DNA of 64,000 bases from Parcubacteria group bacterium Greene0416_39 (lineage in GTDB: Bacteria; Patescibacteriota; Minisyncoccia; Minisyncoccales; UBA10102), in assembly GCA_007375675.1 (NCBI GenBank), contig VMEU01000003.1, positions 8,692 through 72,691 of the forward strand. Reading direction: 5' to 3'. Position numbers and translations under genes: made by a program. Below the pieces are notes generated by a model that did not search any database, had not been told where the DNA came from, and saw nothing but the letters and a program-made list of their open reading frames with translations. Below are positions 4,018 to 35,649 of this stretch, one piece after another; the stretch's first letter is position 1, and each line of letters opens with the position of its first letter.

Positions 4018-4085
4018 CTACGAAATACGAAAAAATACGAATATACGAAAATTTCGTACATTCGTACAAAATTCGTAATTCGTAG
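4018..4085. repeat. AT-rich imperfect palindrome (TTCGTA variant of the intergenic cassette family)
   Basis: CTACGAAATACGAAAAAATACGAATATACGAAAAT / ATTTCGTACATTCGTACAAAATTCGTAATTCGTAG. It fills the mreB-gatC spacer. Confidence 0.7.
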
Positions 4086-4092
4086 AGAATTC

Positions 4093-4380
4093 ATGATTAC
4101 CAAAGAAGAGGTACAACATATTGCAAAACTTGCGAGGATAGAGCTTGCCGACGAAGAACTGAAGAAATTCCAAAAAGATTTCTCTCAGATTCTGGAGTTT
4201 TTTGAGACGCTCAAGGACGTTGACGTGTCAGACGAGAAATCCACGGCCTATTCCATCGCTCTTAACAACGTGACCAGAGATGACATATCAAGAAGAGAAA
4301 AACCGGAAGTAGTTGAAAAACTTATTCGTATGACGCCTCAAATAGAAGGAAATTATGTGAAAGTGCCCAAAGTATTATGA
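4093..4380 (+). CDS. gatC: Asp/Glu-tRNA amidotransferase subunit C
   Basis: MITKEEVQHIAKLARIELADEELKKFQKDFSQILEFFETLKDVDV. Overlaps gatA by 4 nt. Confidence 0.9.
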   Translation: MITKEEVQHIAKLARIELADEELKKFQKDFSQILEFFETLKDVDVSDEKSTAYSIALNNVTRDDISRREKPEVVEKLIRMTPQIEGNYVKVPKVL

Positions 4381-5804
4381 CCATAGAAGAAATCAGAACA
4401 GGTCTTTTGAAAAAAGAATTTTCCGCCGTGGAGCTTGCAGAGCAGTATTTGGCGCGCATTCGGGAGAAAGACCAGGAACTCCACGCGTTTCTCAACGTGA
4501 CAGAAAAACTTGCCCTTGCACAAGCGCGTGAAATTGATGAGAAAATAGCCCGCCTGCCGGCGAGGCAGGCAACGGGAGAGGAATTACCTCCTTTAGCTGG
4601 AGTTCCGTGTTCTGTGAAAGATGCAATTTTAGTAGAGGGAGTTTTGTGCACGGCAGGTTCTCGTATGCTTGAAAACTATATTGCTCCGTATGACGCAACC
4701 GTGGTACAAAAGATAAAGAAGGCAGGAGCTCTTATTGTAGGCAAGACCAATATGGATGAGTTTGGCATGGGAAGTTCCACAGAGAATTCTGCGTTTGGGC
4801 CAACCAAGAATCCCTATGACCCAACTCGAGTGGCAGGCGGAAGTTCAGGAGGGTCTGCAGCGAGCGTAGCAACGGGGGAGTGCGCTGTTTCCCTGGGAGA
4901 GGATACCGGAGGGTCTATTCGTCTTCCCGCCTCTTTTTGCGGAGTTGTGGGGTTAAAACCTACCTACGGAGCAGTTTCTCGTTACGGGATTATTGCAATT
5001 GCTTCTTCTTTGGATCAGGTAGGGCCCATGGCAAAGACGGTAGAGGACTGCGAAACATTGTTCCATGTGATTCGCGGGAAAGACCCGATGGATTCTACGT
5101 CAGTGGAATCAAAAATTTCTAATGACGAATTTCTAATTTCTAAACTTCGGATCGGGGTTCCAAAAGAATACTTTGGAGAGGGATTAGATCCGCAGGTTGA
5201 GAAGGTTATCCGAGGAGCTATTGAAAAACTTGAACATGCTGGAGCAAAGATTATAGAAGTGAGCCTGCCGCATTGCTCGTACGCGTTGGCTGACTACTAT
5301 ATTATAAATATGTCTGAGATTTCTGCAAACCTTGCGCGGTATGACGGCATACGATACGGAGCCTCTGTTTCTGGGGGAAATCTTTTGGCAACGTATATGC
5401 GCTCGCGTGGAGAAAAACTTGGAGCTGAAGTGAAAAGGAGAATCATGCTGGGCACATATGCCTTGTCTGCAGGTTACTATGAGCAGTACTATGTAAAGGC
5501 TCAAAAGGTGCGAGCACTTTTACGAAAGGACTTTGACCAAGTATTTGAAAAAGTTGATGTGATCGCAGGTCCGGTGAGCCCGTTTCTTCCCTTCAAAATC
5601 GGGGAAAAGGTGGGAAACCCGCTCGCAATGTACCTTGTTGATATGTACACAGTAACCCTTAACTTGGCAGGCCTTCCAGGGTTATCTGTGCCCGCTGGAT
5701 CGGTACAAGGTCTCCCGGTAGGGCTTCAACTGATTGCCCCTGCATTTCAAGAGCAGACTCTTTTTGAAACAGGAAAAGCGTTTGAAAAAATTCGAACATT
5801 CTAA
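4377..5804 (+). CDS. gatA: Asp/Glu-tRNA amidotransferase subunit A
   Basis: Amidase signature GGSSGGSAASVA. Full-length GatA-like. Confidence 0.95.
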   Translation: MTIEEIRTGLLKKEFSAVELAEQYLARIREKDQELHAFLNVTEKLALAQAREIDEKIARLPARQATGEELPPLAGVPCSVKDAILVEGVLCTAGSRMLENYIAPYDATVVQKIKKAGALIVGKTNMDEFGMGSSTENSAFGPTKNPYDPTRVAGGSSGGSAASVATGECAVSLGEDTGGSIRLPASFCGVVGLKPTYGAVSRYGIIAIASSLDQVGPMAKTVEDCETLFHVIRGKDPMDSTSVESKISNDEFLISKLRIGVPKEYFGEGLDPQVEKVIRGAIEKLEHAGAKIIEVSLPHCSYALADYYIINMSEISANLARYDGIRYGASVSGGNLLATYMRSRGEKLGAEVKRRIMLGTYALSAGYYEQYYVKAQKVRALLRKDFDQVFEKVDVIAGPVSPFLPFKIGEKVGNPLAMYLVDMYTVTLNLAGLPGLSVPAGSVQGLPVGLQLIAPAFQEQTLFETGKAFEKIRTF

Positions 5805-5821
5805 CATTCAAACATTATTAC

Positions 5822-6340
5822 ATGCCAGACATTTTTTACCTTTTTTCTCTGCTCGTATCTCCTGCCGTGCAAGATCACCTTTTAATCCCAAAGATCACCC
5901 TCGGCGCGCTAAGCGCAGTGCTTCTTGGGTTTATCGTATGGGCATTCTTTAATACGTCGTGGTTTCAGTATGCGTTTTTTACTGATCTGCGGGAGTTTCT
6001 TACGTTTCGTTCCTATGGGCTTCGCAAAATGATCGATAGGTGGCAGAAGACACTTGCAAGGTTGGAAACCGCCCAGGAAGCTGAATACAAACTCGCGGTT
6101 ATTGAAGCAGACGCCATGCTTGACGACGCCTTAAAAAGAATGGCCTTCCCCGGAGCAACGGTGGACGAGCGCTTGCAGAATCTTAGCGCAGCCATTGTTG
6201 CTAATGTGGAGGAAGTACAAAAAGCGCATGCCTTGCGAAATAACGTTGTGCATGACCCAAACTTTCGTTTGTCTTTAGACGAGGCAAGAAAAACCCTCTC
6301 TACATTTGAGAAAGCATTCCAGAGCCTTGATTTGATTTAG
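5822..6340 (+). CDS. hypothetical membrane protein
   Basis: 172-aa ORF with two N-terminal hydrophobic helices. No family recognised. Confidence 0.55.
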   Translation: MPDIFYLFSLLVSPAVQDHLLIPKITLGALSAVLLGFIVWAFFNTSWFQYAFFTDLREFLTFRSYGLRKMIDRWQKTLARLETAQEAEYKLAVIEADAMLDDALKRMAFPGATVDERLQNLSAAIVANVEEVQKAHALRNNVVHDPNFRLSLDEARKTLSTFEKAFQSLDLI

Positions 6341-6344
6341 TTTG

Positions 6345-6416
6345 TTGCGGGGGCCGGATTTGCACCGGCGATCTCAAGGTTATGGGCCTCGTATGCTACT
6401 GCTGCACCACCCCGCA
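6345..6416 (-). tRNA. tRNA with CAU anticodon (Met or Ile2), non-canonical loops
   Basis: Reverse complement folds as TGCGGGG TG GTGC AGCAGTA GCAT A CGAGG CCCATAA CCTTG AGATC GCCGG TGCAAAT CCGGC CCCCGCA A. It has C33 instead of U33 and a TGC instead of TTC T-loop. Confidence 0.65.
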
Positions 6417-6493
6417 TGAGTATTCTATCTCAAGCATAAAGGATTGTAAAGTCCTTGATGTAAGACTTATTTTCCTGTATATTCAACCTGTGT

Positions 6494-11946: not shown

Positions 11947-12492
11947 ATGGCTAAACAACAGCTTGCCCAAGAAAGAAACTGGTACGTCATTCATACCTAT
12001 TCAGGGTATGAAGACGCGGTAGCAAGAAACCTCAAGCAGAGAATTGAGTCTTTGGGCATGCAAGACAAAATCTTTTCTGTTTTGGTTCCCAAAGAAAAGA
12101 AAATCAAAATCAAGAATGGGAAGAGAAAGCTCGTGGAAGAGAAAATTTATCCAGGATACGTGTTAGTTGAGATGATTGTTACCGATGATTCTTGGTATGT
12201 GGTGCGCAACACGCCAAACGTGACAGGATTTGTGGGTTCTGGCACCACGCCAATTCCTGTGGAGACGGCAGAGATTGAATCTTTGAAGAAACGCATGGGC
12301 GTGGATGAACCTCTCTACCTAATTGAAGTGGAGCCAGGAGATGTGGTAAAGATAACAGACGGGCCCTTTCGCGACTTTGAAGGCAAGGTTTCCAATGTGG
12401 ATCAGGAACGGGGCAAGGTAAAGGTGCTGGTGAATATGTTTGGCCGAGATACCCCTGTTGAGTTAGATTCCCTGCAAATTAAGAAGTTATAA
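11947..12492 (+). CDS. nusG: transcription termination/antitermination factor NusG
   Basis: WYVIHTYSGYEDAV NGN domain and KOW (GDVVKITDGPFRDFEGKV). Confidence 0.93.
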   Translation: MAKQQLAQERNWYVIHTYSGYEDAVARNLKQRIESLGMQDKIFSVLVPKEKKIKIKNGKRKLVEEKIYPGYVLVEMIVTDDSWYVVRNTPNVTGFVGSGTTPIPVETAEIESLKKRMGVDEPLYLIEVEPGDVVKITDGPFRDFEGKVSNVDQERGKVKVLVNMFGRDTPVELDSLQIKKL

Positions 12493-12568
12493 TGCAAATC
12501 CACGAATGATATGCGAATGCCGCAAATATATATTCGCATCATTCGCATAGATTTGTAGATTAGCATTA
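12490..12568. repeat. AT-rich palindromic intergenic cassette (copy B)
   Basis: TAATGCAAATCC...ATGCGAATGCCGCAAATA...TTCGCATAGATTTGTAGATTAGCATTA. Its TAA is the nusG stop. TTCGCA-16-CATTAT lies 6 nt before the rplK ATG. Confidence 0.75.
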
Positions 12569-12575
12569 TATTTTT

Positions 12576-18239: not shown

Positions 18240-19160
18240 TTATAAAAGAAATTGGCGAACTAAGATTTCTGCTTCTTGAGAACTTTTTATCCAGTGGATG
18301 CGGGGATCTTTTTTGAACCAGGTCATCTGGCGGCGGGCGAAATCTTTGATTGCTTTTTGAAGTTTTGATTTCATTTCTTCCAAGGAAAGTTTTTCCTGGA
18401 GATATTGCGCAATAAATCGATATTCAAGGCCTAATTCTTCCAAGCGTTTCCACGACAAACCTTGTTTGTGGAGGTTTGCGACTTCCTCGATCATGCCCTG
18501 CTTGAAGCGTTTTGTGAGGCGTTGAGTAATAAGTTTTTGGATTTCGGATTTTGACTTTTTGATTCCAATAAATAAGACATCACTAGCATACCATGGTGCT
18601 GTAGTGAGTATGGATTTTTGAAGTGGGGGAACAGGTTTTCCAGTGGAAAGGACAATCTCGAGGGCGCGGATAAGGCGTCTTTTATTCCTGCCTTGTCCTG
18701 AGCTTTGTTGAAGGGTTCTTGCCCTTTCAGGGTCGAGCTTTTTCAGCTTGAGAAAGAGTTCCTGGACTGATAGTTTTTCCAGTTTTTTGCGCAAGAGGGG
18801 ATTGGGTTTCACCGCAGGAATAGTCCAGCCGTCAACAACCGAGTAGATGTAAAAAGGGCTTCCGCCAACAAGAATGGGAAGTTTCCCTTGCCGTGCAATT
18901 GAAGCCATGGCTTCAATTGCACGTGAACGATACTGCGATACGGTAAATCTTTTCTTTGGAGAAGCAACATCCAAAAGATGATGGGGGATTCCCATCATTT
19001 CTTTTTGAGTGATTTTTCCTGTTCCAATAGTAAGCCCCTTGTATACCTGTCTTGAATCGGCAGATATAATTTCTCCATTGAATTTCTTTGCCAACTGTAC
19101 GCCAAGAGCGCTCTTCCCGGATGCAGTTGGACCCAAGAGAACAACAAGTTTTTTCATCAT
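18240..19160 (-). CDS. miaA: tRNA dimethylallyltransferase
   Basis: GPTASGKSALGVQLAKKFNGEIISADSRQVYKGLTIGTGK. Confidence 0.93.
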   Translation of the reverse strand: MMKKLVVLLGPTASGKSALGVQLAKKFNGEIISADSRQVYKGLTIGTGKITQKEMMGIPHHLLDVASPKKRFTVSQYRSRAIEAMASIARQGKLPILVGGSPFYIYSVVDGWTIPAVKPNPLLRKKLEKLSVQELFLKLKKLDPERARTLQQSSGQGRNKRRLIRALEIVLSTGKPVPPLQKSILTTAPWYASDVLFIGIKKSKSEIQKLITQRLTKRFKQGMIEEVANLHKQGLSWKRLEELGLEYRFIAQYLQEKLSLEEMKSKLQKAIKDFARRQMTWFKKDPRIHWIKSSQEAEILVRQFLL

Positions 19161-19193: not shown

Positions 19194-19196
19194 TTT

Positions 19197-20754: not shown

Positions 20755-20833
20755 ATAATGCGAATTTACGAATAATATGCGAATGCCGCGAATATACTTA
20801 TTTGTACATTCGCAATCATTTGTTGATTTGCAT
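20755..20833. repeat. AT-rich palindromic intergenic cassette (copy D)
   Basis: ATAATGCGAATTTACGAATAATATGCGAATGCCGCGAATA...TTTGTACATTCGCAATCATTTGTTGATTTGCAT. It contains the thrS stop and last codons. Confidence 0.75.
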
Positions 20834-22584: not shown

Positions 22585-23229
22585 TTATCCTAGCACAATT
22601 TGAGGAAAGTGGAAACGGAGAAACTGTTCAATGGGAATTCGTACGGCAGGGTCGTCCCAGACATAGTCGTGCCCTTTCATGTGCCAAACGTCTAAAATGG
22701 AGCGGCCTTGGAACGTTCCTATGTTTGCTGCAACCACAAGGCAGGCCTTGAGCAGAACAATTAGGAATGCAAAAAAGGGGCCTGACGTAAAGGCATCATC
22801 TTTTCTTTGGAGCTGAAGAATGCGTTCCTGCGCAGGAGAATGAATAAAAAAAGGAGGTCCTATTTGAATAGAATACAGGCGCGACTCGTAAGGGAGCCTC
22901 TTCATTGTGGAAATATTGACAATTGCTCCAAGAGAGTAGCCAACAAGAACAATGCAACGCCCAGGAAACGCTTTAAGAGTTGTTTGTAGTTCTTGCGCAA
23001 GGTTTTGAGAAGCTTGCTTGTAGCCAAGAAGAAGATCCCAAGCGGCTTTGGCGTGCTTTCCAAACGTAAGAAAGCGCAGTCTGTCAAAAACTTGCACTCG
23101 GCACTTCCAACCTTGGGAAACGAGAACCCGGGAGATTCCTTCAAGAACGCCTCTTTCTTCGTGCGCTCGTTCTAACCCCCCGTCTCCCCATCCTCCCCGG
23201 TTTAAAATAATGAGAACTTCCTTTGCCAT
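22585..23229 (-). CDS. hypothetical protein, possible alpha/beta hydrolase
   Basis: Nucleophile-elbow-like VLVGYSLGA. Otherwise unrecognised. Confidence 0.45.
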   Translation of the reverse strand: MAKEVLIILNRGGWGDGGLERAHEERGVLEGISRVLVSQGWKCRVQVFDRLRFLTFGKHAKAAWDLLLGYKQASQNLAQELQTTLKAFPGRCIVLVGYSLGAIVNISTMKRLPYESRLYSIQIGPPFFIHSPAQERILQLQRKDDAFTSGPFFAFLIVLLKACLVVAANIGTFQGRSILDVWHMKGHDYVWDDPAVRIPIEQFLRFHFPQIVLG

Positions 23230-23235
23230 AGAAAT

Positions 23236-23316
23236 ATAATGCGAATTTACAAATAATATGCGAATGCCGCGAATACTCGTATTTGTACATTCGCAGTCAT
23301 TTGTGGATTTGCATTA
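23236..23316. repeat. AT-rich palindromic intergenic cassette (copy E)
   Basis: Near-identical to copy D and the reverse complement of copy F. The dnaE stop TAA lies in its TAATGCA end. On the minus strand, CATTAT lies 6 nt before the ATG at 23229. Confidence 0.75.
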
Positions 23317-26300
23317 CTCTACGATTTCTTCAACTGCGTCTGCAATAAACTTACGTTCGCCGTTTCTGGTATCTACCCTTCCTTCCACAAACACAATCTT
23401 GTTTTCTTGGAACGCCCCGGGATTCTTTTCCATAACCGTGGGAAACGCAACCACCTCAATATTGTCGGTTAAATCCTCAAGGCGAATAAACAGCATAGGT
23501 TTTCCAACTCTCGTGAGGATCTTTTTCATAGAAGAAATAATGCCTCCAATTCTCATCCGTTTTTGCAGTCCAGGAGATTCGGGAGATGCGTTCAACACCT
23601 TCGTGATGGAAATGGTTTTTTGCTCAAGAAAGTTTTTCATGTGCGCCAAAGGATGAGAACTCACGTAGAGGCCCAAGAGTTCTTTTTCCCAAAGAAGAAG
23701 CTCTTTTTCTTTTGCAGGCGGCGCAGGTTCAAGTTTTATTCCGTTGTTTAAACCTTCTTGAGAACCAAAAAGGGATTTTTGCGAACCGGCGTTGATTTTG
23801 TTGTTTTCCCTCGCAATTTCTAAAAGCTTTTCCATATTTTTCAAAAACTGATTCCTCTCTCCAAATCGGTCGAACACGCCTGCCTTAACCAAACTTTCAA
23901 ATGATTTTTTGTTCAAGTCTTTTGAATGAACGCGTGATACAACGTCTGAAATGGAAGTGTATGGCCCTTGCTCTTTGCGTTCCTTAATAAGAACCTCTAC
24001 GATTCCTTCTCCCACATTTTTTATTGCAAGCAATCCAAAGCGTATCTTTGAGTCCTTGAGCACTACAGAAAAGTAGCTGAAACTTTCGTTAATGTCCGGG
24101 GGCAAGACCTCAATGCCCATTTTTCTTGTTTCATCAATGAGAAAGGCAATGCGTTCAATATCATTTCTCTCTGAAGTCAGCAGAGCTGACATAAACTCGA
24201 GCGGGTAGTACGTTTTGAGCCACGCAGTCTGGTAGGTGATCATGGCGTATGAGGCGCTATGGCTTTTATTAAACCCATAGTGCGCAAATGGAAGAATCCA
24301 TTCCCAGAGTTTTTCTGCAATGTTCTTGGCAATCTGATTTTTTACGGCTCCTTGGATGAACTTTTCTTTTTGCTCCAAAAGCAGTTTTTCAATTTTCTTT
24401 CCCACGGCCTTTCTTAAGACGTCTGCTTCACCCATGGTAAACCCGGCAATATCTCTTGCTATTTGCATGAGTTCTTCTTGGTAAATGCAGATCCCCTGGG
24501 TTTTTTCTAAGATCGGCTTGAGTTTTGGGTGGAGATATTCAACTTTTTTCTTTCCGTGTTTACGCGCAATGTACTCAGGAATAAGCTCCATGGGGCCTGG
24601 ACGATACAAGGCAATCATTGCCACAATGTCTTCAAACTCGGTAGGTTTTAACTCTTTTAAATAGCGGCGCATACCCTCTGATTCAACCTGGAATACGCCT
24701 ACCGTATTTGCGACGCGAAACAGCTCGTAGACCTTGTCGTCATCAAACGGGATAGAATCTAAATTTATATTCTTTCCGTGAATTGCGTAGATTCTTTTTA
24801 GGGTGTCTTCAATAATGGTAAGGTTTTTTAAACCCAAAAAATCCATTTTCAAAAGGCCCAGGTCCTCAATAGAGTGCATCTCATACTGCGTTACAATGTG
24901 TTCTTCTCCCTGGGTTGGATGCTGTACGGGAACAAGGTTTTCAAGGGGCTCGGGAGCTATCACCACTCCACATGCATGGGTTGAGGCATGGCGCACAACT
25001 CCTTCAAGTTTTTTGGCGAGATCAATAAGGCGTTTGGCGCGTTCGTCAGAGTTATACAATTCTTTGAACTCTTCAACTACTGTAAGGCTTTCTTCAAGAG
25101 TCATGCCAAAAGGAATCATTTTTGCAAGCCGGTCGCAATAGAGGTACTCGTATGCTAAGGCTCGCCCTACGTCACGCACCACGGCACGCGAGGCCATGGT
25201 TCCAAACGTGATTATTTGAGCTACTTTGTCATGCCCGTATTTTTCTCCCACGTATGTGATCACCTCGTCTCTCCGGTAATCAGCAAAGTCAAGATCAATA
25301 TCTGGAAGCGAAATGCGTTCAGGATTCAAGAATCTTTCAAACAAAAGATTGTACTTCAAAGGATTAATGTTTGTAATTCCCAATAGGTACGCGGCGAGCG
25401 AACCTCCTACAGAACCACGCCCTGGCCCCACAACAATACGGTGTTCTTTTGCCCAGTTCACAAAGTCTTGCACAATGAGAAAGTAAGCGGCAAAGCCTGT
25501 TTTTTGAATCACGTCAAGCTCATATTCCAGCCGTTCCTTTGCTTCTTTAGAATCTTTAAGCTCCAAGCGCTTTTCAAGGCCCAGGAGGCAAAGTTCTCTC
25601 AAATACTCTTCAGCGGTTTTCCCTGGAGGCAGGGGATACACAGGTAATTTATTCACGCCCAAGGCAATGGTGAAATTGCACATCTCACTAATTTTTTGAG
25701 TGTTCTCAAGAGCTTCTGGAACATCCTGGAAAAGTTTCTCCATATCCGCGGGGCTTTTTAAAGAAAAATCGTCTGATTTGAGGGTAATCCTTTCGGGGTC
25801 ATCTGGCCTTGCTCCTGTGTTGATGAGCATTAAAATGTCTTGGGCGTCTGCGTCTTCAGGCCGCAGGTAGTGGGAATCTGCTGTGGCAACAAGCGGGATG
25901 CCGGTTTTTTTTGCCAGAGCAATGAGTCCTTCATTCACAACTTTTTGCTCCCTAATATTCGGGTGATCCTGCAGTTCAAGATAAAAATTATCTTTCCCAA
26001 AGATTTCTTGGTAACGCAGCGCGGCATTTTCTGCCTCTTGCAACTTTTTCGCAAGAATCAATCTTGGAATTTTGCCTGTAAGGCATGAAGAAAGCGCAAT
26101 AAGGCCTGATGAATATTCTTGAAGCCACGTCTCGTCAATGCGAGGTTTGTAGTAAAATCCTTCAAGGTATGCCTTGGTGAGGAGTTTTACTAAGTTGCGA
26201 TACCCCTGCTCGTTCTTTACCAAAAGAATGAGGTGATGAGATGTGTCATCAATACCAGGGCGTTTTTGGGAAGCCGCATCTAAAGCAATATACATTTCAC

Positions 26301-27768: not shown

Positions 27769-27990
27769 ATGGCAGTTCCAAAGCAACATCGATCAAGCTC
27801 TAGGCGAGACCAGAGGAGAATGCACCTCTTTTTAAAGAGCCCCGGGTTGGTTTTGTGCAAAAAGTGTACAAAAAAGATTCTTCCTCATACCGTATGCCCT
27901 TATTGCGGCATGTACCGGGGACGACAGGTTGTAGATGTGCTTGGCCAGCTTGCCAAGAAAGAGAAGAAAGCAAAAGAAAAAGTAAAATAA
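27769..27990 (+). CDS. rpmF: 50S ribosomal protein L32
   Basis: MAVPKQHRSSSRRDQRRMH plus C-x2-C...C-x2-C. Confidence 0.9.
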   Translation: MAVPKQHRSSSRRDQRRMHLFLKSPGLVLCKKCTKKILPHTVCPYCGMYRGRQVVDVLGQLAKKEKKAKEKVK

Positions 27991-28070
27991 TAATGCAAAT
28001 CTGCAAATGACGGCGAATGTACAAATACGAGTATTCGCGGCATTCGCATATTATTCGTAGATTCGCATTA
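27991..28070. repeat. AT-rich palindromic intergenic cassette (copy F)
   Basis: TAATGCAAATCTGCAAATGACGGCGAATGTACAAATACGAGTATTCGCGGCATTCGCATATTATTCGTAGATTCGCATTA. TTCGCA-17-CATTAT lies 6 nt before the nusB ATG. Confidence 0.75.
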
Positions 28071-28077
28071 TACATAT

Positions 28078-29673: not shown

Positions 29674-29955
29674 ATGGATGATTACAATACCATGGAGGGA
29701 CTGATCACCAAACTGACTGGCTCTTGGATGACTGGCTCGGAACAGGGGACAGTCTCTCCGGTGGCGTTCATGGAAGCGCTAGAAATCCTCGGGAGGTTGC
29801 AGACCTCAGTAAGGAGTCGGCACTCCGAGTTGGAGGAATTCGTTGCTGCTCCAACGCCGGATAAAGCCACCGTCCTTCTTGCGTCAATAGAAGAGGCTCG
29901 GAAAGAAGGACGGACTCGTATGGCCCGGCTGGAGGAACTGGGACCTCCGATCTAG
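29674..29955 (+). CDS. hypothetical protein (93 aa)
   Basis: GC-rich ORF after a consensus promoter. No family recognised. Confidence 0.5.
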   Translation: MDDYNTMEGLITKLTGSWMTGSEQGTVSPVAFMEALEILGRLQTSVRSRHSELEEFVAAPTPDKATVLLASIEEARKEGRTRMARLEELGPPI

Positions 29956-30146
29956 CAAACAGGGCGAGGGAAGAGAGTCTAAACAAAAAAAGACTCGCTA
30001 GTACCTCGCCTACACACTTGAGTCTCGAACAGAAGTTGGAGCTTCAAGTGTGTGGAAAGTTCTTTGAGAATATTGTGTAATGAGTGACCTGCTGTTCGTG
30101 AACCATTCGTGACCAGCAGGGCGCTCATTCAAATATAAAGGGGGTC

Positions 30147-30383
30147 ATGACAGTGGCACAACAAAAGAAGCGGTCACTAAGGGAACTCAGGGAACGGGCA
30201 AAGCCTGCGATCAAGGAGAAAAAACTGGTGATGATTGCGCAATACTCTACTCCAAGCGCAGCATACGATCTTACCATCCTCAACAACGCCAATGAGGAGT
30301 TGGCACAGGCCTGTCGATGGCTCGCCATGATCCGGCGAGACTACGGCGCAGAGGCGTTTAAGGAGGCTACCCAAGCAGAGTAA
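30147..30383 (+). CDS. hypothetical protein (78 aa)
   Basis: ATG after AAAGGGGG. No family recognised. Confidence 0.5.
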   Translation: MTVAQQKKRSLRELRERAKPAIKEKKLVMIAQYSTPSAAYDLTILNNANEELAQACRWLAMIRRDYGAEAFKEATQAE

Positions 30384-30443
30384 CCTGGATCCTATAGCAC
30401 GCCACGGCACAAAACTTAGTGCCACGGCACGTAAAGGAGCTCC

Positions 30444-30575
30444 ATGTTCACGACTCTTCAGTGCACGAAATGCCGGGTATACTTTAATGCCAACACCTAT
30501 AATGGACTCCATTGTCCTTGCTGCAGAGGATTGCTCAAAATCGTTACCGTTTTCCTCTGCTGCTGCCACTACTGA
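30444..30575 (+). CDS. 43-aa Cys-rich mini-protein (zinc-ribbon-like CxxC...CxCC, C-terminal LCCCHY)
   Basis: Not in the track (under 60 aa). ATG follows AAAGGAG. MFTTLQCTKCRVYFNANTYNGLHCPCCRGLLKIVTVFLCCCHY. Confidence 0.4.
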   Translation: MFTTLQCTKCRVYFNANTYNGLHCPCCRGLLKIVTVFLCCCHY

Positions 30576-30742
30576 TTGACCACCACCTAACCACAAGGTT
30601 GCATAAACCATCCAGGGGGAATCTTCTGAGGGTCCGAGCGCCAATCTTCAGGAATTCCCCCCGATCCCTTAAGCCCAAGGCTAGGCCTTGTGCCAATGCC
30701 GTGGGTTTAAGAGATTGGAAGTTCTTTCAAAAGTCTTCACAA

Positions 30743-30822
30743 CGGCGAAATGGACATTAGCTAGAAACACTCAAGAATATGACTGATTGGAGTGAAAGAC
30801 AGAGTTAGTGTTCATCTCGCCG
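30743..30822. repeat. long-hairpin repeat B, copy 1
   Basis: CGGCGAAATGGACATTAG (30743-30760) pairs over 18 positions (1 mismatch) with TTAGTGTTCATCTCGCCG (30805-30822). Same arms as copy 2, different interior. Confidence 0.6.
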
Positions 30823-30857
30823 CTCTGGAGAAAATCTGGCGTGAAAGGAGGTGTCGC

Positions 30858-30932
30858 ATGGCAGACCGCGGCATTTGCGACCAATGCGGGAAGGTCCGCA
30901 TATTAATTCACAAAGATGGGAAGGAAAAGTGA
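30858..30932 (+). CDS. 24-aa CxxC mini-ORF
   Basis: AAAGGAGG then ATG. MADRGICDQCGKVRILIHKDGKEK. Directly follows repeat B1. Confidence 0.3.
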   Translation: MADRGICDQCGKVRILIHKDGKEK

Positions 30933-31031
30933 AGCAAGAGGAGAGTTGATAAGCGTAAGTTTCTCAATTCTACCCTCGCTTCAGAAATGTTCTTTCTCTG
31001 AAATTTATAGCGAGGAAAGGAGGTGAGGACC

Positions 31032-31307
31032 ATGGGCTTGGACCTAGGTCTCTACCTCAGGAAGGAGGAAGGGAGCTTCTTCGTAGGTTCCACGAACTTA
31101 TCAAGTGGGGGCAAAACCCCCATGCGAGAGTTCACGAACCTCGAGGAGGCCCTAGCGTTTGTGCAGCTTGAGCGAATCAGGCTGCCCTACGAGGACTTTG
31201 ACGTGGCAGGCTTTGCCACGTACAAGAAAGTTCTCCACGCAAGGATCAACTCGGAAGTCAGCGAAGAGCTGGCAGAAGAGTTGTCGGCTGCCCTTGAGAA
31301 CGAGTAG
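31032..31307 (+). CDS. hypothetical protein (91 aa)
   Basis: AAAGGAGG 8 nt before the ATG. No family recognised. Confidence 0.5.
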   Translation: MGLDLGLYLRKEEGSFFVGSTNLSSGGKTPMREFTNLEEALAFVQLERIRLPYEDFDVAGFATYKKVLHARINSEVSEELAEELSAALENE

Positions 31308-31377
31308 CCGTCCTTTCCAAAGGGGGGAGAGTTACCGGTTCGCAAAAGCATTACGCCAAGCGAATCCTCCCCCCTCT

Positions 31378-31413
31378 CCATCAAAGTTCACAAACATTTG
31401 CGGATTCTGATGG
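31378..31413. repeat. hairpin repeat A, copy 1 (diverged)
   Basis: CCATCAAAGTTCACAAACATTTGCGGATTCTGATGG, preceded by the GGGGGGAG...CTCCCCCC stem. Confidence 0.55.
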
Positions 31414-31446
31414 GGGAAAATAAATCTGTAAGTGGAGAAAGAAACA

Positions 31447-31779
31447 ATGCCCCTAGCAGAACTTTTGGAAAAAAGATACGGCAATAAGTATACGTACCTT
31501 CACATCGGCAGAACATCCAACCTCACGTTTTTGAAGCCAAATAGGTTTCACATACAAGGTCGTCTTCCTACCTTTTGGGTCTTTGTGACAACTGTGGAAT
31601 TCGTCTGCGAGTGGGCGATCTTTATAGGCGAGCTTGGCCCAGCCTACCTCTATGGGATCCGCGAACAAGATCTTCCTCCTAACTACGCGCTCGAGGAAGG
31701 AATCAATGGCTGGGATCGTGGCGATATACGGATTGTCACAGAACACCTAATTCCCGTTACATACCTAAGAGAAGTTTAG
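31447..31779 (+). CDS. hypothetical protein (110 aa)
   Basis: ATG at 31447 after GTGGAGAAAG. No family recognised. Confidence 0.5.
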   Translation: MPLAELLEKRYGNKYTYLHIGRTSNLTFLKPNRFHIQGRLPTFWVFVTTVEFVCEWAIFIGELGPAYLYGIREQDLPPNYALEEGINGWDRGDIRIVTEHLIPVTYLREV

Positions 31780-31843
31780 TTTTCTCTAAAGGAAGACTTT
31801 ATGGGGCGTGAAGATATGCACTTCAATTACTGCACGCCCCTCT

Positions 31844-31884
31844 CCATCAAAGTTCAAGAAACTATTTCGTGGATTTTGATGGGG
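31844..31884. repeat. hairpin repeat A, copy 2
   Basis: CCATCAAAGTTCAAGAAACTATTTCGTGGATTTTGATGGGG, identical over 41 nt to copy 3. Preceded by the GGGGCGTG...CACGCCCC stem. Confidence 0.7.
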
Positions 31885-32000
31885 TTAGAATCAAAGTCTT
31901 GATTCTAACGGGCAAATTAGTGAGCTTTAACGAACGTTAAAATTTGCCCTGGGGTTTGCGAAAGCAAACTACCTTACATCCCAGAGCACTTTTACACAAA
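31885..32000 (+). ncRNA. candidate structured RNA segment (unclassified)
   Basis: Back-to-back perfect hairpins: TTAGAATCAA/TTGATTCTAA. GGGCAAATT/AATTTGCCC enclosing TTTAACG/CGTTAAA. CTGGG...CCCAG enclosing GTTTGC-GAAA-GCAAAC (GNRA loop). No ORF. Confidence 0.35.
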
Positions 32001-32008
32001 CTTCATAG

Positions 32009-32093
32009 CGGCGAAATGAACATTAGTTAATTCAGGACCACAAGTTATTGATTCGTTACAGAGATCCAAAGAGAATTAGTGTTCAGCTTGCCG
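32009..32093. repeat. long-hairpin repeat B, copy 2
   Basis: CGGCGAAATGAACATTAG (32009-32026) / TTAGTGTTCAGCTTGCCG (32076-32093). Confidence 0.6.
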
Positions 32094-32114
32094 CGGTGGA
32101 GTGCTTCAAAAGAA

Positions 32115-32207
32115 TTACTGCTTGCGGGGTTTGGGATTGTAGAGGAAAGCCACCGTAATCATTAGTATACCCACGAGAACCCCGACGATTGTAAGAAGAG
32201 TAGTCAT
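32115..32207 (-). CDS. 30-aa single-TM micro-protein
   Basis: MTTLLTIVGVLVGILMITVAFLYNPKPRKQ. Third ORF of a tight tandem. Confidence 0.4.
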   Translation of the reverse strand: MTTLLTIVGVLVGILMITVAFLYNPKPRKQ

Positions 32208-32212
32208 GTTAT

Positions 32213-32311
32213 TTATTGTTTAGCATTTTTTGCGATGATAAAAATACCAAGACTTACAAGTCCGATAATAATATATGCAAGAAGAAGTTGATCAGTAATA
32301 GTAAAGTTCAT
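32213..32311 (-). CDS. 32-aa single-TM micro-protein
   Basis: MNFTITDQLLLAYIIIGLVSLGIFIIAKNAKQ. Lies 4 nt after the 63-aa ORF. Confidence 0.4.
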   Translation of the reverse strand: MNFTITDQLLLAYIIIGLVSLGIFIIAKNAKQ

Positions 32312-32315
32312 ACGA

Positions 32316-32507
32316 TTATTTTTGTAGGTAAATACTTATTACAAGCGTACCCATCGCAACAGTTGCCCCAACCATAAATACAGAAAAGGGAACCGATCCG
32401 ATGGCCGTAGGCACGAAGAACCCAATCACGGTAGAAGCAACTAAGATTTTGGAAATATCAGAGAAATACTTTGAGAGAGCATCAACCTGTTGATTGTTCA
32501 ATATCAT
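32316..32507 (-). CDS. 63-aa two-TM membrane protein
   Basis: MILNNQQVDALSKYFSDISKILVASTVIGFFVPTAIGSVPFSVFMVGATVAMGTLVISIYLQK. Confidence 0.5.
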   Translation of the reverse strand: MILNNQQVDALSKYFSDISKILVASTVIGFFVPTAIGSVPFSVFMVGATVAMGTLVISIYLQK

Positions 32508-32516
32508 GATACTTTG

Positions 32517-32546
32517 AGTATAGAAGTTTTATATCAATGATGTCAA
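32517..32546 (-). promoter_or_regulatory. promoter TTGACA-18-TATACT, 9 nt before the ATG (near-leaderless)
   Basis: Reverse complement of 32541-32546 is TTGACA and of 32517-32522 is TATACT. Confidence 0.6.
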
Positions 32547-32664
32547 GCAAATATCTAATCTCTCAAGCTCACCACCGAAGTGATGGGTTTAAGAGATCGT
32601 TCAGATTCTGAAGAATCTTCAGATTCGATGAATTGGACAGCACCTTAAAGTAAGAGGAGGAGTA

Positions 32665-32907
32665 ATGCCAGAAGAAATCGACTTGGATCAAGTTAGTGTT
32701 TCTCCTAATATGCACAGCACATGGGAAGCGATCACCACATCTATGGCAGAACTCTTGCATCGACATGGAATCTTGCTGAGCGAAGTAGACGAGAAGGCAC
32801 GAGTTGAGGGAGACGGAAGCTTGACGATTTTCGCTAAGCTGCCCATGGGAGAGGTTTCGCTTCGCGTACCTCCTAGAGAGTGGGCATATCGCTTTCCCAG
32901 AAATTAA
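32665..32907 (+). CDS. hypothetical protein (80 aa)
   Basis: TAAGAGGAGG before the ATG. No family recognised. Confidence 0.5.
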   Translation: MPEEIDLDQVSVSPNMHSTWEAITTSMAELLHRHGILLSEVDEKARVEGDGSLTIFAKLPMGEVSLRVPPREWAYRFPRN

Positions 32908-32951
32908 AGAAGGGTTCCGCTGGAGACCAGAAAGGAGAATCCATCCAGCAC

Positions 32952-32992
32952 CCATCAAAGTTCAAGAAACTATTTCGTGGATTTTGATGGGG
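32952..32992. repeat. hairpin repeat A, copy 3
   Basis: 41 nt identical to 31844-31884. Preceded by the GCTGGA...TCCAGC stem. Confidence 0.7.
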
Positions 32993-32993
32993 C

Positions 32994-33023
32994 TTGACAC
33001 TTCTCTTGAATCTACGATACGAT
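32994..33023 (+). promoter_or_regulatory. candidate promoter TTGACA-18-TACGAT for the KH gene
   Basis: TTGACA at 32994-32999 immediately after repeat A3. Confidence 0.45.
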
Positions 33024-33091
33024 ATTTGCAGAACACCGATAAACAGAATGGCAAAGGTCGAAGCATTGAATTGAACACACGAATTGCATAT

Positions 33092-33397
33092 ATGGCAGAA
33101 GAAACACCAGAATACCAGAATCTTCTAGACTATGTGGTGAAGGCATTGGTAGACCACCCAACAGACGTTGTAGTAGACCGCAGGGTAGACGAAATGGGTG
33201 TTCTCCTTCTCTTGAAAGTGCACCCCGAAGACATGGGCCAAATAATTGGCCGCGAGGGTTCCACTGCAAGAGCAATACGAACCATTATTCGTATTTCAGG
33301 GCTCAAGAACCACGCTCGCGTGAACCTCAAAATTGAGGAGCCCGAGGGCGGAAGAGGCCCAAGAGCAAAAGAACCTCTGGAAGATCTGAAGATTTAA
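33092..33397 (+). CDS. KH-domain RNA-binding protein (YlqC/UPF0109 family)
   Basis: LLDYVVKALVDHPTDVVVD...HPEDMGQIIGREGSTARAIRTII. This is the usual partner of rpsP. Confidence 0.85.
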   Translation: MAEETPEYQNLLDYVVKALVDHPTDVVVDRRVDEMGVLLLLKVHPEDMGQIIGREGSTARAIRTIIRISGLKNHARVNLKIEEPEGGRGPRAKEPLEDLKI

Positions 33398-33420
33398 CTT
33401 TGTAATTGTGAGCGAATTGT

Positions 33421-33456
33421 GAGCGAAAAAGCGGGGTCTGTCCCCGCTTTTTCGCT
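33421..33456 (+). terminator. rho-independent terminator
   Basis: GAGCGAAAAAGCGGGG tctgt CCCCGCTTTTTCGCT. Confidence 0.7.
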
Positions 33457-33460
33457 ACAT

Positions 33461-33691
33461 ATGGAGATCGTCGAGGAGCAGGTCTCGCCGACCTGCACCG
33501 CCTGCCTCCCGGCTGACCAGGCGGGTCCGCCCGCAACCCAGGCCACCTTCCAGTGCCCAAACGGACACTTCAGTTACACCACCAAGTGCGGGATCTGTGG
33601 ACAGGAGTCCGCGGGGCTCTACACCTGGCACGGAGGTCCGTGCCAGTACTGCCCAAAGGAGGAAGGATTAGTGGCTGTAGAAAGCTACTAA
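33461..33691 (+). CDS. Cys-rich zinc-ribbon-like protein (76 aa)
   Basis: CTAC, CPNGH, CGIC, CQYC. No obvious RBS. Confidence 0.4.
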   Translation: MEIVEEQVSPTCTACLPADQAGPPATQATFQCPNGHFSYTTKCGICGQESAGLYTWHGGPCQYCPKEEGLVAVESY

Positions 33692-33745
33692 TTCTCCTGC
33701 TAACCGCCAAATGATCTGGCGGGATATAAAAAAGGTCTATAGAGA

Positions 33746-33777
33746 AACCCCAGGGCTGCATCGCGCAACCTGGGGTT
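33746..33777. terminator. bidirectional hairpin terminator
   Basis: AACCCCAGG / CCTGGGGTT between convergent genes. Confidence 0.6.
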
Positions 33778-33792
33778 TTAACTTTGGCAACT

Positions 33793-34146
33793 TCAGGACA
33801 GGTCAACGCCGAGCTTGTCGCGGATCACTGTTTTGAGACGGTTGAGGTCATGTTTCATAATGGTGAATTCATCTTCCATGTCGGTCATACGCTTAAGGAA
33901 TTTATCAAGAGTTGTGATAAGACGATCCATTTTCTGATTAAAACGCTCCTCCAGCTGTCCCATTCTTCGATCGAGCATTTCTACTTTTGAATCAACGAGT
34001 TCAATGCGTTTTTCAAGCAAAAGAAACTTTCCGTCTTGTCGTGTAAACTTCTCATCAACCGCATCCAGAATGGTACGCGTTTGACCATCTAAGAGTTTCT
34101 CGATGTGTGCCACTGTAGGCACTTGGACAGCTTGTTTTTTTAACAT
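33793..34146 (-). CDS. coiled-coil protein (117 aa)
   Basis: Heptad-rich LLEKRIELVDSKVEMLDRRMGQLEERF. TACAAT lies 6 nt before the ATG. Confidence 0.6.
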   Translation of the reverse strand: MLKKQAVQVPTVAHIEKLLDGQTRTILDAVDEKFTRQDGKFLLLEKRIELVDSKVEMLDRRMGQLEERFNQKMDRLITTLDKFLKRMTDMEDEFTIMKHDLNRLKTVIRDKLGVDLS

Positions 34147-34191
34147 AGATTCATTGTAAGTCTTCAGGAGGAGGAAAGAGTACCTTAAACT

Positions 34192-34512
34192 TTAGACAAC
34201 TGGATGAAGCTTTGTTTCGAGGTTGCCGACGCGGTGTTTAACCGCAGCAAATTCATCACGATCCACTTTGTCCTTAAGGCCGTGTTTGATAGTTTGCACT
34301 GTAACCTTGATTACTTCAACGTCATCTCTAAGCGCATCAACTTTTTCGGGCAATTCTTCAAGCCGATCCAAACGCTGGTTGGCGACTTCTACTCCCTCCA
34401 ACACTTGTTTTACGTCTGACTGAACAGCCTCAACCGTGACTCCGACTTCCCTGATATCTTTCCGCAAACCTTCAGTGGCTTCTTCGATAATTTTCTTGAT
34501 GTCGTCTGCCAT
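34192..34512 (-). CDS. coiled-coil protein (106 aa from MADDIKK)
   Basis: TTGACA-16-TATAAT lies 7 nt upstream of the ATG at 34512. The track ORF extends to a TTG at 34581. Confidence 0.6.
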   Translation of the reverse strand: MADDIKKIIEEATEGLRKDIREVGVTVEAVQSDVKQVLEGVEVANQRLDRLEELPEKVDALRDDVEVIKVTVQTIKHGLKDKVDRDEFAAVKHRVGNLETKLHPVV

Positions 34513-34620
34513 ATAGTTCATTATAGAAGCCGTATCTATGATGTCAATGTCTCCATCGAAGTCTGAAAAAAGATTCCGCAAGGATCCTGGAATTGAAAAT
34601 TTACGAGAGATAATGCTACA

Positions 34621-35364
34621 ATGCAGCGGAAACGCTGTTTTCTGTTTACTATGATAACCTTTGACGTCATCACAATCTTTCCAGAACTTGTTGAGGCCTT
34701 TGGGAAAGAGTCGTTGTTAAAACGCGCGCAAAAAAAGAAGTTACTGAAAATCCAAGCCCACGATCTCAGGAAATGGGCAAAAGATAAACACAAGACTGTG
34801 GACGATAAGCCTTTCGGCGGAGGATTGGGAATGGTTTTGCGAATTGAACCGATATACAAAGCGGTCACCGCTTTGAAATCCGAAGCACGAAATTCGAAAT
34901 CCGAAACAAATTCGAAATTCAAAAGCTCACAATCTAAAACGATACTATTCACTCCTCGGGGAAAAAAGTTCACGCAGAAAATGGCGTATGAGTTTTCAAA
35001 GTTCAACCAGCTCATTTTTATCTGCGGAAGATATGAGGGAGTAGACGAAAGAGTGGCAAAGCACATTGCAGACGAGGAGCTTTCAATTGGAGACTATGTT
35101 CTTATGGGAGGGGAGATCCCTGCAATGACGGTTATTGAGGCTGTAGCCCGCCTTATTCCAGGAGTGGTAGGCAAGCCAGCCTTCCTCAAAGAAAGGCTCA
35201 TAAAGGGCTCTGGGGGGCCTAAAAACGGGTTTATAGAGTATCCCCAGTATACCCGCCCTGAAACGTTTAAAGAGTGGAGGGTGCCAAGAGTTCTGGTTTC
35301 TGGAAACCATCAAAAAATAGGGGAGTGGAAAGCAAAACATGGACAAATTGTTGGCAAACAGTAA
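34621..35364 (+). CDS. trmD: tRNA (guanine37-N1)-methyltransferase TrmD
   Basis: MITFDVITIFPELV, GRYEGVDERV, GDYVLMGGE. GATAAT lies 6 nt before the ATG at 34621. An alternative start is the ATG at 34651. Confidence 0.9.
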   Translation: MQRKRCFLFTMITFDVITIFPELVEAFGKESLLKRAQKKKLLKIQAHDLRKWAKDKHKTVDDKPFGGGLGMVLRIEPIYKAVTALKSEARNSKSETNSKFKSSQSKTILFTPRGKKFTQKMAYEFSKFNQLIFICGRYEGVDERVAKHIADEELSIGDYVLMGGEIPAMTVIEAVARLIPGVVGKPAFLKERLIKGSGGPKNGFIEYPQYTRPETFKEWRVPRVLVSGNHQKIGEWKAKHGQIVGKQ

Positions 35365-35389
35365 AATCTATGCTACATATTTATGATAG

Positions 35390-35471
35390 GGGCGGTTCGT
35401 ATAGCGGCAATTACGCCACGCTGTAGACGTGGTGCCTTCGGGCTTCAGGGGTTCGAGTCCTCTACCGCCCA
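35390..35471 (+). tRNA. tRNA-Tyr (GUA), long variable arm
   Basis: GGGCGGT...CCACG CTGTAGA CGTGG TGCCTTCGGGCTTC AGGGG TTCGAGT CCTCT ACCGCCC A. Confidence 0.85.
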
Positions 35472-35489
35472 CAGTCGGGGTGATTTGAT

Positions 35490-35560
35490 GCCGAGGTAGC
35501 TCAATGGTAGAGCACGTCATTGGTAATGACGCGACAAGAGTTCAATTCTCTTTCTCGGCT
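35490..35560 (+). tRNA. tRNA-Thr (GGU)
   Basis: GCCGAGG TA GCTC AATGGTA GAGC A CGTCA TTGGTAA TGACG CGAC AAGAG TTCAATT CTCTT TCTCGGC T. Confidence 0.85.
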
Positions 35561-35572
35561 CATAATCAATAA

Positions 35573-35649
35573 TAATGCAAATTTACGTATGACTACGAAT
35601 GCCGCAAATAATATTTGTACATTCGCATATCATTTGTAGATTGGCATCA
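35573..35649. repeat. AT-rich palindromic intergenic cassette (copy G)
   Basis: TAATGCAAATTTACGTATGACTACGAATGCCGCAAATA...ACATTCGCATATCATTTGTAGATTGGCATCA. TTCGCA-17-CATCAT lies 6 nt before the rpmG ATG. Confidence 0.7.

Follow-up and report, generated by a model that had tools for sequence, protein, structure and literature searches.

A four-heptad, promoter-like motif in intergenic cassettes of many Patescibacteria lineages

The Correia repeat-enclosed elements of Neisseria are intergenic sequences of ~100-150 bp with inverted ends, which carry outward-facing -35/-10 boxes and fold into a hairpin when transcribed through; they move with duplication of TA, are restricted to one genus and degrade neutrally. 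Families of putative mobile promoters are genome- or species-specific; near-identical promoter-bearing intergenic sequences in front of unrelated genes were reportedly treated as 'promoter propagation in prokaryotes' by Matus-Garcia et al. in 2012. Here we describe a family of ~80-nt palindromic spacers, termed cassettes, in a 64,000-nucleotide stretch of DNA from Parcubacteria group bacterium Greene0416_39 (GenBank assembly GCA_007375675.1, contig VMEU01000003.1, positions 8,692 to 72,691 of the forward strand). The whole stretch is called the window, and five near-full cassettes (C1-C5) and two variants (V1, V2) were named in it. The proximal arm of the cassette, which adjoins the downstream start codon, is by sequence comparison a ~46-nt motif of four heptads common to many lineages of Patescibacteria (the candidate phyla radiation, CPR). 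To our knowledge, almost nothing is known of how transcription is organised in these bacteria, which make up a large share of bacterial diversity and have tiny genomes with few regulators. A nearly invariant 46-nt sequence that precedes ribosomal, transcription and replication genes suggests that these lineages have a trans-acting factor and a regulatory logic in common.

The cassettes resemble Correia elements in being short and intergenic, with inverted ends, outward -35/-10-like boxes and a hairpin predicted for read-through RNA, but they span distant CPR lineages, are under purifying selection in place, contain an internal heptad array and keep a fixed distance to the ATG. As with putative mobile promoters, near-identical promoter-bearing spacers precede unrelated genes of one genome; unlike them, the cassette keeps one 46-nt consensus across distant CPR lineages. 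The repetitive extragenic palindromes and bacterial interspersed mosaic elements (REP/BIME) of enterobacteria are 20-40 nt long, species-specific, associated with RAYT transposases and without fixed relation to the next start codon. The cassettes share with these the imperfect palindromes directly after stop codons, often as inverted pairs, and differ from them in their length of ~80 nt, their presence in multiple lineages and their fixed distance to the next start codon.

Other parallels are found among promoters and activator sites. The Bacteroidetes core promoter (-33 TTTG / -7 TAnnTTTG) is read by a primary sigma factor that is itself altered. The CPR motif likewise is a group-wide sequence departing from TTGACA/TATAAT, but here the sigma-A recognition residues are canonical and canonical promoters coexist with it, which suggests a second promoter class. 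The pho boxes of PhoB, the TT(A/T/C)ACA sites of B. subtilis PhoP and the ArcA repeats are direct repeats bound by an activator in place of a -35 box; they recur every 11 bp on one helix face and serve narrow regulons. Three or four short direct repeats between roughly -45 and -15, overlapping the -35, are also seen here; in contrast to those sites they are spaced by 9, 10-11 and 8 nt, the last repeat enters the -10 and the genes are general housekeeping genes. Some resemblance is also seen to the streptococcal ComX box TACGAATA, the Spo0A 0A box TGNCGAA, the sporulation sigma F/G consensus GCATA ... CATnnTA, the SlyA site TTAGCAAGCTAA and CIRCE TTAGCACTC, none of which is known to match in both sequence and spacing.

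In leaderless promoters of Actinobacteria and Deinococcus the start codon comes ~6-7 nt after a -10 TANNNT (PMC3898074, PMC4007540, PMC3160421). Similarly, the cassettes present a -10-like hexamer 4-7 nt before the ATG with no Shine-Dalgarno (SD) sequence, and other genes of the window follow the same habit with canonical TATAAT boxes; the difference is that in many lineages of the CPR four heptads keep the sequence constant all the way from -45 to -7, and that the module is usually present as an inverted pair. A cross-phylum promoter study that included Nanosynbacter lyticus (188 start sites derived from RNA-seq) only notes a more variable distance between -10 and start in this organism, and promoters are not discussed in the N. 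lyticus transcriptome paper. No description of the motif was found in the searchable literature on CPR promoters, sigma factors, leaderless genes and the motif strings themselves, within which the motif appears to be undescribed.

The arm and its distribution

The repeated unit is one ~46-nt arm and not the palindrome. Its consensus, ATTYGYRG-CATTCGCATA-N1-2-ATTYGTAGATT-nGCATYAT, consists of four ATTnGYA heptads whose starts are spaced ~9, 10-11 and 8 nt apart and lie near -45, -36, -25 and -17 (counted with the ATG as +1 and a gap of 6 nt). Heptad 2 contains TTCGCA at the -35 position and the 3' flank of heptad 4 contains the -10-like CATYAT 16-17 nt further downstream, a spacing that the variable N1-2 gap holds across the CPR.

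The motif was searched for in a collection of one genome per species (596 Gb) with 21 specified bases, CATTCGCATA-N1-2-ATTYGTARATT, and at least 113 loci were obtained compared with ~2 chance matches by our own estimate from ~40 bits. The full motif was present in 111 of the matches listed, nearly all of them from Patescibacteria (Parcubacteria, Microgenomates and ABY1-type lineages), and the two matches outside the CPR (Lachnospiraceae and Tamlana) had none of the unconstrained motif parts and represent chance background. Named carriers include Liptonbacteria, Yanofskybacteria, Moranbacteria, Tagabacteria, Harrisonbacteria, Wolfebacteria, Sungbacteria, Zambryskibacteria, Buchananbacteria, Falkowbacteria, Woesebacteria, Roizmanbacteria, Microgenomatus and Paceibacteria / Minisyncoccia. 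In 118 matches the flanks left free by the search pattern were conserved too (ATTYGYRG upstream and nG(C/T)AT(T/C)AT downstream), and the information content fell to background right after the -10-like hexamer.

Because heptad 3 had been constrained in this pattern, a second scan was run on metagenomes in which only CATTCGCATA, 14-15 free bases and GCATTAT were fixed. Among the 95 distinct matches, heptad 1 was present upstream in 53, and heptad 3 stood at the start of the spacer in 51 of these 53 compared with 5 of the 42 remaining (background) matches; the ATT of heptad 4 was found in all 53. Since heptad 3 is kept without having been constrained, the spacer is conserved in its own right, and it and the -45 region are conserved as strongly as the hexamers. 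Contacts of RNA polymerase alone do not usually require a conserved spacer.

The full motif was also seen in metagenome-assembled genomes (MAGs) titled Gammaproteobacteria (loci L006, L024, L032, L052, L061, L062, L068, L071, L095, L108 and L109), Bdellovibrionales (L012 and L019) and Pacearchaeota (L009). NusG and L11 encoded at L071 are 65% and 55% identical to those of the window, which makes the non-CPR labels doubtful; these labels look wrong or the contigs mis-binned. The window itself is identical over ~20 kb to contig VMGR01000001.1 (GCA_007376645.1, a Patescibacteria MAG), except for a 39-nt insertion in the latter at 29686/29687.

Function of the arm and competing readings

An arm profile gave 220 arms in 868 kb of CPR DNA, of which 190 were full-length. 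The start of an open reading frame (ORF) of at least 60 aa lay 3-7 nt past the hexamer in 29% of the 190 arms compared with 4% at random positions, a 7-fold enrichment, and in a second, independent sample an ATG followed 3-6 nt past the hexamer in 32% of the 53 motif-bearing metagenome matches. Of 45 gene starts of the window without a cassette, 8 are preceded at a distance of exactly 6 nt by a canonical TAnnnT box (e.g. TATAAT-GAGAAC-ATG and TAGAAT-ACGGAA-ATG), indicating that leaderless initiation is a habit of this genome, and 14 other gene starts have an SD sequence. The distance from CATYAT to the ATG, 6 nt in four of the five cassettes, equals that of the canonical -10 boxes in the window. 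No SD-like motif was found upstream of the five genes served by cassettes, whose start codons lie at the expected position of the transcription start as in leaderless genes. The -35- and -10-like hexamers are 16-17 nt apart, within the 16-18 nt of sigma-70-type promoters, and the second and sixth bases of the -10-like hexamer are A and T as in these. The first-pass annotation had proposed a promoter for a leaderless mRNA, and this is supported by the end of conservation at the hexamer, the enrichment of ORF starts and the matching spacing; the proximal arm is most likely such a promoter.

A GCGAAGC mini-hairpin was seen in the first 30 nt downstream of 7 of the 190 arms (0.34 expected; L020, L070, L068, L071, L017, L027 and L072), with TTAAGCGAAGCGnnnATG as a typical leader, and may stabilise the 5' end in a subset of transcripts with short leaders.

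The window encodes a primary sigma factor, sigma-A, of 509 aa (59469-60998, minus strand), which keeps the canonical DNA-reading residues in its regions 2.4, 3.0 and 4.2; an altered primary sigma factor as the cause of the odd hexamers was rejected on this ground. About 160 non-conserved residues lie between its regions 1.2 and 2. Given that the hexamers agree with the sigma-70 consensus at 8 of 12 positions, that sigma-A is canonical and that TTGACA-N17-TATAAT promoters occur in the same window, the cassette would represent a second promoter class, and the conservation of heptads within the -35/-10 spacer and upstream of the -35 suggests that something beyond sigma-A contacts the DNA.

We therefore favour, at a probability of roughly 60%, the reading that the spacer is a dyad of outward-facing ~46-nt promoter arms with a leaderless start, that a second factor reads the heptads, and that the cassettes have been copied in a fixed orientation within genomes; the promoter activity, the transcription start site and the factor are what we infer here from comparative sequence data. 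Heptad 2 would supply the -35-like TTCGCA and the 3' flank of heptad 4 the -10-like CATYAT, the proximal arm thus acting as the promoter. Transcription would begin at or within a few nt of the ATG and yield a leaderless or very short-leader mRNA without SD sequence. Initiation would need, or be controlled by, a sequence-specific factor that reads the ATTnGYA heptads, for which an alternative sigma factor or an activator or repressor conserved in these lineages is a candidate; the 8/12 hexamers, the canonical sigma-A and the conservation of the spacer and -45 region argue that such a second factor is needed. The distal arm, the same motif inverted and abutting or overlapping the upstream stop codon, might serve as an insulating symmetric protein platform or as an antisense promoter, and the cassettes would have been copied as oriented units within the genome, where they would replace canonical promoter-plus-SD leaders before housekeeping genes.

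Several points weigh against this reading. A match of 8/12 is below the 9/12 threshold of a simple promoter scan, and about half of the arms have no ORF start within 60 nt (59 of 99 of these face the 3' end of a gene). The heptad spacing of 9, 10-11 and 8 nt departs from one helix face, which is hard to reconcile with a simple head-to-tail oligomer. Conservation is no lower in the distal arm than in the proximal one, its -10-like end included, and a purely directional promoter would not predict this. The loci were picked with patterns derived from the window, so that frequencies and taxonomic range come from biased samples, and several MAG titles are unreliable.

The equal conservation of the two arms would be expected if the dyad were an operator array coated by a conserved repressor or nucleoid-type protein, which would switch many housekeeping operons in concert, such as on a change between the host-attached and the free state, with the hexamers incidental or embedded. 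Each arm does contain repeated short units at conserved spacing, as an operator array would, and can be read as two double-heptad units of ~20 nt that are two helical turns apart; the eight heptads of a cassette stand in dyad symmetry, both arms are equally constrained, the set of target genes is broad, and the strong conservation of the spacer and -45 region fits as well. However, conservation ends exactly at the -10-like hexamer, at the same 6 nt from the ATG as canonical -10 boxes, and solo and tandem arms that have no dyad partner are common. We regard an operator array as unlikely to be the main explanation, although the operator and promoter readings are compatible and differ in the purpose of the heptads, and an operator function may account for the extra conservation.

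The genes downstream of the arms belong to 101 Pfam families with a housekeeping flavour, among them those for NusG, NusB, L11, L1, L2, L22, S10, L14, EF-Tu, RpoC, SecA, DnaE, TrmD and response regulators, and a narrow regulon was rejected for this breadth. Transfer RNA genes are rarely found downstream of arms and in a few cases upstream, so that a tRNA-gene promoter was rejected as well. The nusG-rplK-rplA cluster was present in 9 of the 113 loci listed, with the cassette at different junctions depending on lineage, and both tuf and the nusG-rplK cluster have the cassette in some lineages and a canonical TTGACA promoter with a leader in others. The shifting junctions and the two kinds of promoter before tuf suggest that the module is interchangeable with ordinary promoters. 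Positional orthology was accordingly rejected, the cassette not being fixed at nusG/rplK, at rpmF/nusB or before tuf across lineages.

Within the window, five homologous copies (74-93% identity) precede rplK, nusB, rpmG and two unrelated genes, as described for mobile promoters. The likeness of cassettes is 0.84 within a genome compared with 0.71 between genomes, and cassettes of the same genome are closer to each other than to their own reverse complement (0.69-0.82), which indicates units with an orientation, copied or homogenised within genomes. A motif of at least ~50 bits can hardly have arisen de novo at many sites, and this calls for some mechanism of copying. These observations would also fit a miniature non-autonomous mobile element (comparable to a miniature inverted-repeat transposable element, MITE, or to Correia elements) that has spread in CPR genomes and incidentally carries outward promoters. 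The dyad has outward-facing conserved ends, TAATGC...GCATTA, like terminal inverted repeats, the same gene has the cassette at different positions in different lineages, and some matches lie within ~150 nt of a contig end (e.g. L006, L014 and L031), as is often the case with multi-copy repeats.

Evolution in place argues otherwise. In one orthologous pair (L195/L235), in which a 91-nt spacer separates two co-directional genes as in the arrangement of the window, identity in the cassette is 98/101 (97%) compared with 74.3% across 3 kb of flanks (p = 7e-10), the changes being spread over both arms. A second pair (L035/L098) has 98% in the cassette and 91% in the flanks (p = 0.002), and in pairs from Moranbacteria the arms are kept while indels fall in the central loop. 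By these sequence comparisons both arms are under purifying selection, and orthologous copies so far above flank identity are held in place by selection and are not decaying as a neutral element would. Moreover, even very distant CPR lineages have nearly the same motif, solo or tandem arms are numerous, no target-site duplication could be told apart from the palindrome, to which the flanking TA of C1-C5 may equally belong, and no transposase is linked to the cassette, no systematic transposase search having been made. No cassette copy was found in IMG/VR viral contigs, phage records or plasmids, and a phage or plasmid origin was rejected on this ground. The window's close relatives, L001 and L002 (the only ones), are identical to it in this region. 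A mobile element of this kind is very improbable as the main explanation, and a strain-specific, neutrally decaying MITE was rejected because of the span over distant lineages and the purifying selection on orthologous copies.

Neighbouring arms were back-to-back in 45 cases, tandem in 17 and face-to-face in 3. In 30 of 44 back-to-back pairs one arm points toward a gene start and the other toward the 3' end of a co-directional gene, as in the window, and backward arms score as well on the profile as forward arms (mean 28.7 vs 28.1) and have the same -10-like end. At least three inverted heptads beside a forward arm were found about as often when the upstream gene was co-directional (61%) as when it was divergent (55%), and the idea that the inverted arm serves solely as terminator of a co-directional upstream gene was therefore rejected.

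A role at the level of RNA was weighed: either an 'I-shaped' terminator without U-tract, or a cut by RNase III that trims the downstream mRNA to a near-leaderless end. The sense-strand hairpins are predicted at -22 to -32 kcal/mol with z-scores of -2.2 to -5.4, the hairpin occupies the spacer between co-directional genes, and an RNase III gene lies in the nusB operon after C4. Across 21 cassettes, 87.1% of the cells of the full hairpin are paired, but shuffled cassettes reach 86.7% and 144 of 500 shuffles were at least as high; the covariation score was 0.096 (0.085 shuffled), and 64 of 500 shuffles scored as high. Two arms from one cassette resemble each other at variable positions no more than arms taken from separate cassettes do (864 vs 882 +/- 17, permutation p = 0.87), and RNAalifold retains 8 central pairs only with a covariation term of -0.54 kcal/mol. 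Neither compensatory changes nor a match to a curated family thus mark the cassette as a structured RNA, Rfam giving no family match, whether with gathering thresholds or with E <= 10. The sense RNA folds worse than the antisense RNA in each of the five copies and likewise in V1. The terminator scan listed none of the cassettes, which lack a G+C-rich stem followed by a U-tract; the stem base is A+U-rich, with tails UAUUUUUAU in C1 and UACAUAUAU in C4. The terminator-like hairpin of the first-pass annotation is therefore not upheld, and a selected hairpin or terminator was rejected as the main constraint. Further, a hairpin would not need sequence identity across distant CPR, and solo arms are common; an RNA-level element is accordingly a poor candidate that we rate as very unlikely. 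Selection on both arms together with the lack of covariation indicates that the palindrome consists of two inverted copies of the motif and is not a hairpin selected for pairing, although, with 87% of positions able to pair, read-through RNA could still adopt a hairpin.

Arms also stand in tandem, two or three in a row; such arrays with periods of 43 nt and 56 nt (L055 7839-7936 and L062 5680-5775) resemble stacked promoters. A rare face-to-face pair of arms, 18 nt apart (GCCAGGTTGCTCCAGAA; L105 146-245 and L011 1206-1305), is shared in conserved form by two contigs of a single MAG. Heptad 3 of an arm holds an inserted G+C-rich palindrome (CCCGCCTGC...GCGGGCAGG) three times in contig L019 (~3272, 4050 and 4633), and one also lies in an arm at L081 3556-3580; possibly this is another small repeat, with the cassette as its target.

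More broadly, and only tentatively, it is possible that many lineages of Patescibacteria share a second promoter class made up of a four-heptad module, a lineage-specific initiation factor (an alternative sigma factor or an activator or repressor associated with RNA polymerase), leaderless housekeeping genes, an insulating oriented dyad and copying within genomes. If so, the whole group would have a common cis-regulatory code, from which the factor could be traced and expression tools developed for these bacteria, most of which are uncultivated. The arm is a concrete bait for DNA pull-downs, and the cassette is a candidate strong promoter for new genetic systems in cultivated CPR bacteria. The motif can also serve as a sequence marker for CPR contigs, including apparently mislabelled MAGs, and help gene callers to place start codons in genomes rich in leaderless genes, while the family offers a case study of promoter copying and of exchange for canonical promoter-plus-SD leaders in streamlined genomes.

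Cassettes, variants and other features of the window

All five cassettes have one polarity relative to the flanking genes, whose strand is the one given below, and each occupies the entire spacer, with the distal arm (TAATGCAAAT...) adjoining the upstream gene and the proximal arm (...CATTCGCATA..ATTYGTAGATTnGCATTAT) adjoining the downstream start codon. C1 (12489-12569, plus strand) lies between nusG and rplK, with the distal arm at ~12489-12529 and the proximal (promoter) arm at ~12530-12569; TTCGCA (12542-12547) and CATTAT (12564-12569) are separated by 16 nt and the rplK ATG is at 12576. In C2 (20755-20836, minus strand), between thrS and a gene of 517 aa, the proximal arm is at ~20755-20796 and the distal arm at ~20797-20836; CATTAT (reverse complement of 20755-20760) follows TTCGCA (reverse complement of 20778-20783) after 17 nt, and the ATG (reverse complement of 20748-20750) comes after a 4-nt gap. 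C3 (23236-23317, minus strand) fills the spacer between dnaE and a gene of 214 aa and has its proximal arm at ~23236-23277, its distal arm at ~23278-23317, CATTAT and TTCGCA as the reverse complements of 23236-23241 and 23259-23264 with a 17-nt spacer, and the ATG (reverse complement of 23227-23229) after a gap of 6 nt. Between rpmF and nusB, C4 (27990-28071, plus strand; distal arm ~27990-28030, proximal arm ~28031-28071) has TTCGCA at 28043-28048, a 17-nt spacer and CATTAT at 28066-28071, followed by the nusB ATG at 28078. C5 (35572-35650, plus strand; distal arm ~35572-35611, proximal arm ~35612-35650) separates tRNA-Thr, which ends at 35561, from rpmG, with TTCGCA at 35622-35627, a 17-nt spacer, CATCAT at 35645-35650 and the rpmG ATG at 35657.

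The pairwise identity of C1-C5 is 74-93%. At E 1e-20 to 1e-27, a nucleotide profile built from them recovered these five and no others in the 64-kb window, in agreement with the five ~80-nt copies that the first-pass annotation had placed here as whole spacers between genes. A repeat finder paired C1-C5 as direct and inverted repeats of 42-107 nt with 81-92% identity. The relation noted earlier between C4 and C3 (copies 27991 and 23236) as reverse complements is confirmed at 86% over 107 nt, or 91% over 92 nt. Likewise, the geometry described before holds in all five copies, TTCGCA being followed after 16 nt (C1) or 17 nt (C2-C5) by CATTAT or CATCAT, with 6 nt to the ATG in four copies and 4 nt at the 517-aa gene.

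The two TTCGTA variants had been counted as members of the family; heptad elements are indeed present in both, but the kinship is distant. V1 (4018-4085, plus strand; nhmmer E 0.06) lies between mreB and gatC and is a palindrome of heptads, four TACGAA followed by four TTCGTA; its -10-like GAGAAT ends 2 nt before the gatC ATG (4093), and it is not a typical family member. V2 (19161-19196, minus strand; nhmmer E 0.98) is a single heptad arm in the 36-nt spacer between the 517-aa gene and miaA, which read on the plus strand resembles an arm directed back toward the upstream gene, and no forward promoter arm is present. The miaA ATG overlaps the final TACGAAT heptad of V2 (19158-19196, minus strand) and no SD sequence precedes it; miaA is probably co-transcribed with the 517-aa gene from C2.

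The cassettes had further been thought to supply the stop codon of the upstream gene within the terminal TAATGC. This is the case for nusG (12490-12492) and dnaE (reverse complement of 23314-23316) but not for rpmF, whose TAA (27988-27990) stands directly before TAATGC and ends on the first base of the cassette. The stop of thrS is within the element as claimed, a TGA (reverse complement of 20816-20818) located 22 nt into C2. Here thrS runs into the cassette (20816-20840, minus strand): the TAA of the cassette end is AAA, and the last 7 codons and the TGA are cassette sequence. The hexamer CATTAT reads TAA on the opposite strand. Among the 59 CPR arms that face a gene end within 60 nt, the stop codon was exactly at the hexamer TAA in 18 and within 5-10 nt in 26 more; 18/59 is about the 1 in 3 expected from the reading frame, so that the supply of stop codons, although real, is largely a by-product of frame and tight packing.

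The looser metagenome pattern also drew two unrelated conserved families, a human-gut locus (AATTATTAAGGGGTGCGAAAATAC...) and a marine one (GTAGTACATTCGCATATTTGGGCGAATGTTTGCATTAT, with the look of a small hairpin), at loci L130, L135, L139, L150, L168, L179, L180, L185, L188, L189, L200, L202 and others, and at L118, L126, L149, L155-L157, L161, L163, L190 and L234. Elsewhere in the window, an intein that carries a LAGLIDADG homing-endonuclease domain splits a 738-aa tyrosine recombinase of the Phage_integrase family (54166-56382, minus strand). Coding density is low, with short ORFs only, at ~29900-34600, where the nusB-rnc-rpsP operon is separated from trmD. A 46-nt hairpin repeat occurs at 31844-31889 and 32952-32997 (96% identity) and a 31-nt exact repeat at 47567-47597 and 51474-51504. 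GCCAGG..CCTGGC repeats follow tRNA-Trp (35958-36063 and 36818-36857), and an inverted GGAGGGT..ACCCTCC pair is located at 52117-52148 and 58767-58798. Two canonical promoter regions are also duplicated in the window, one at 45708-45862 and 53051-53210 and the other at 51523-51576 and 53605-53658.

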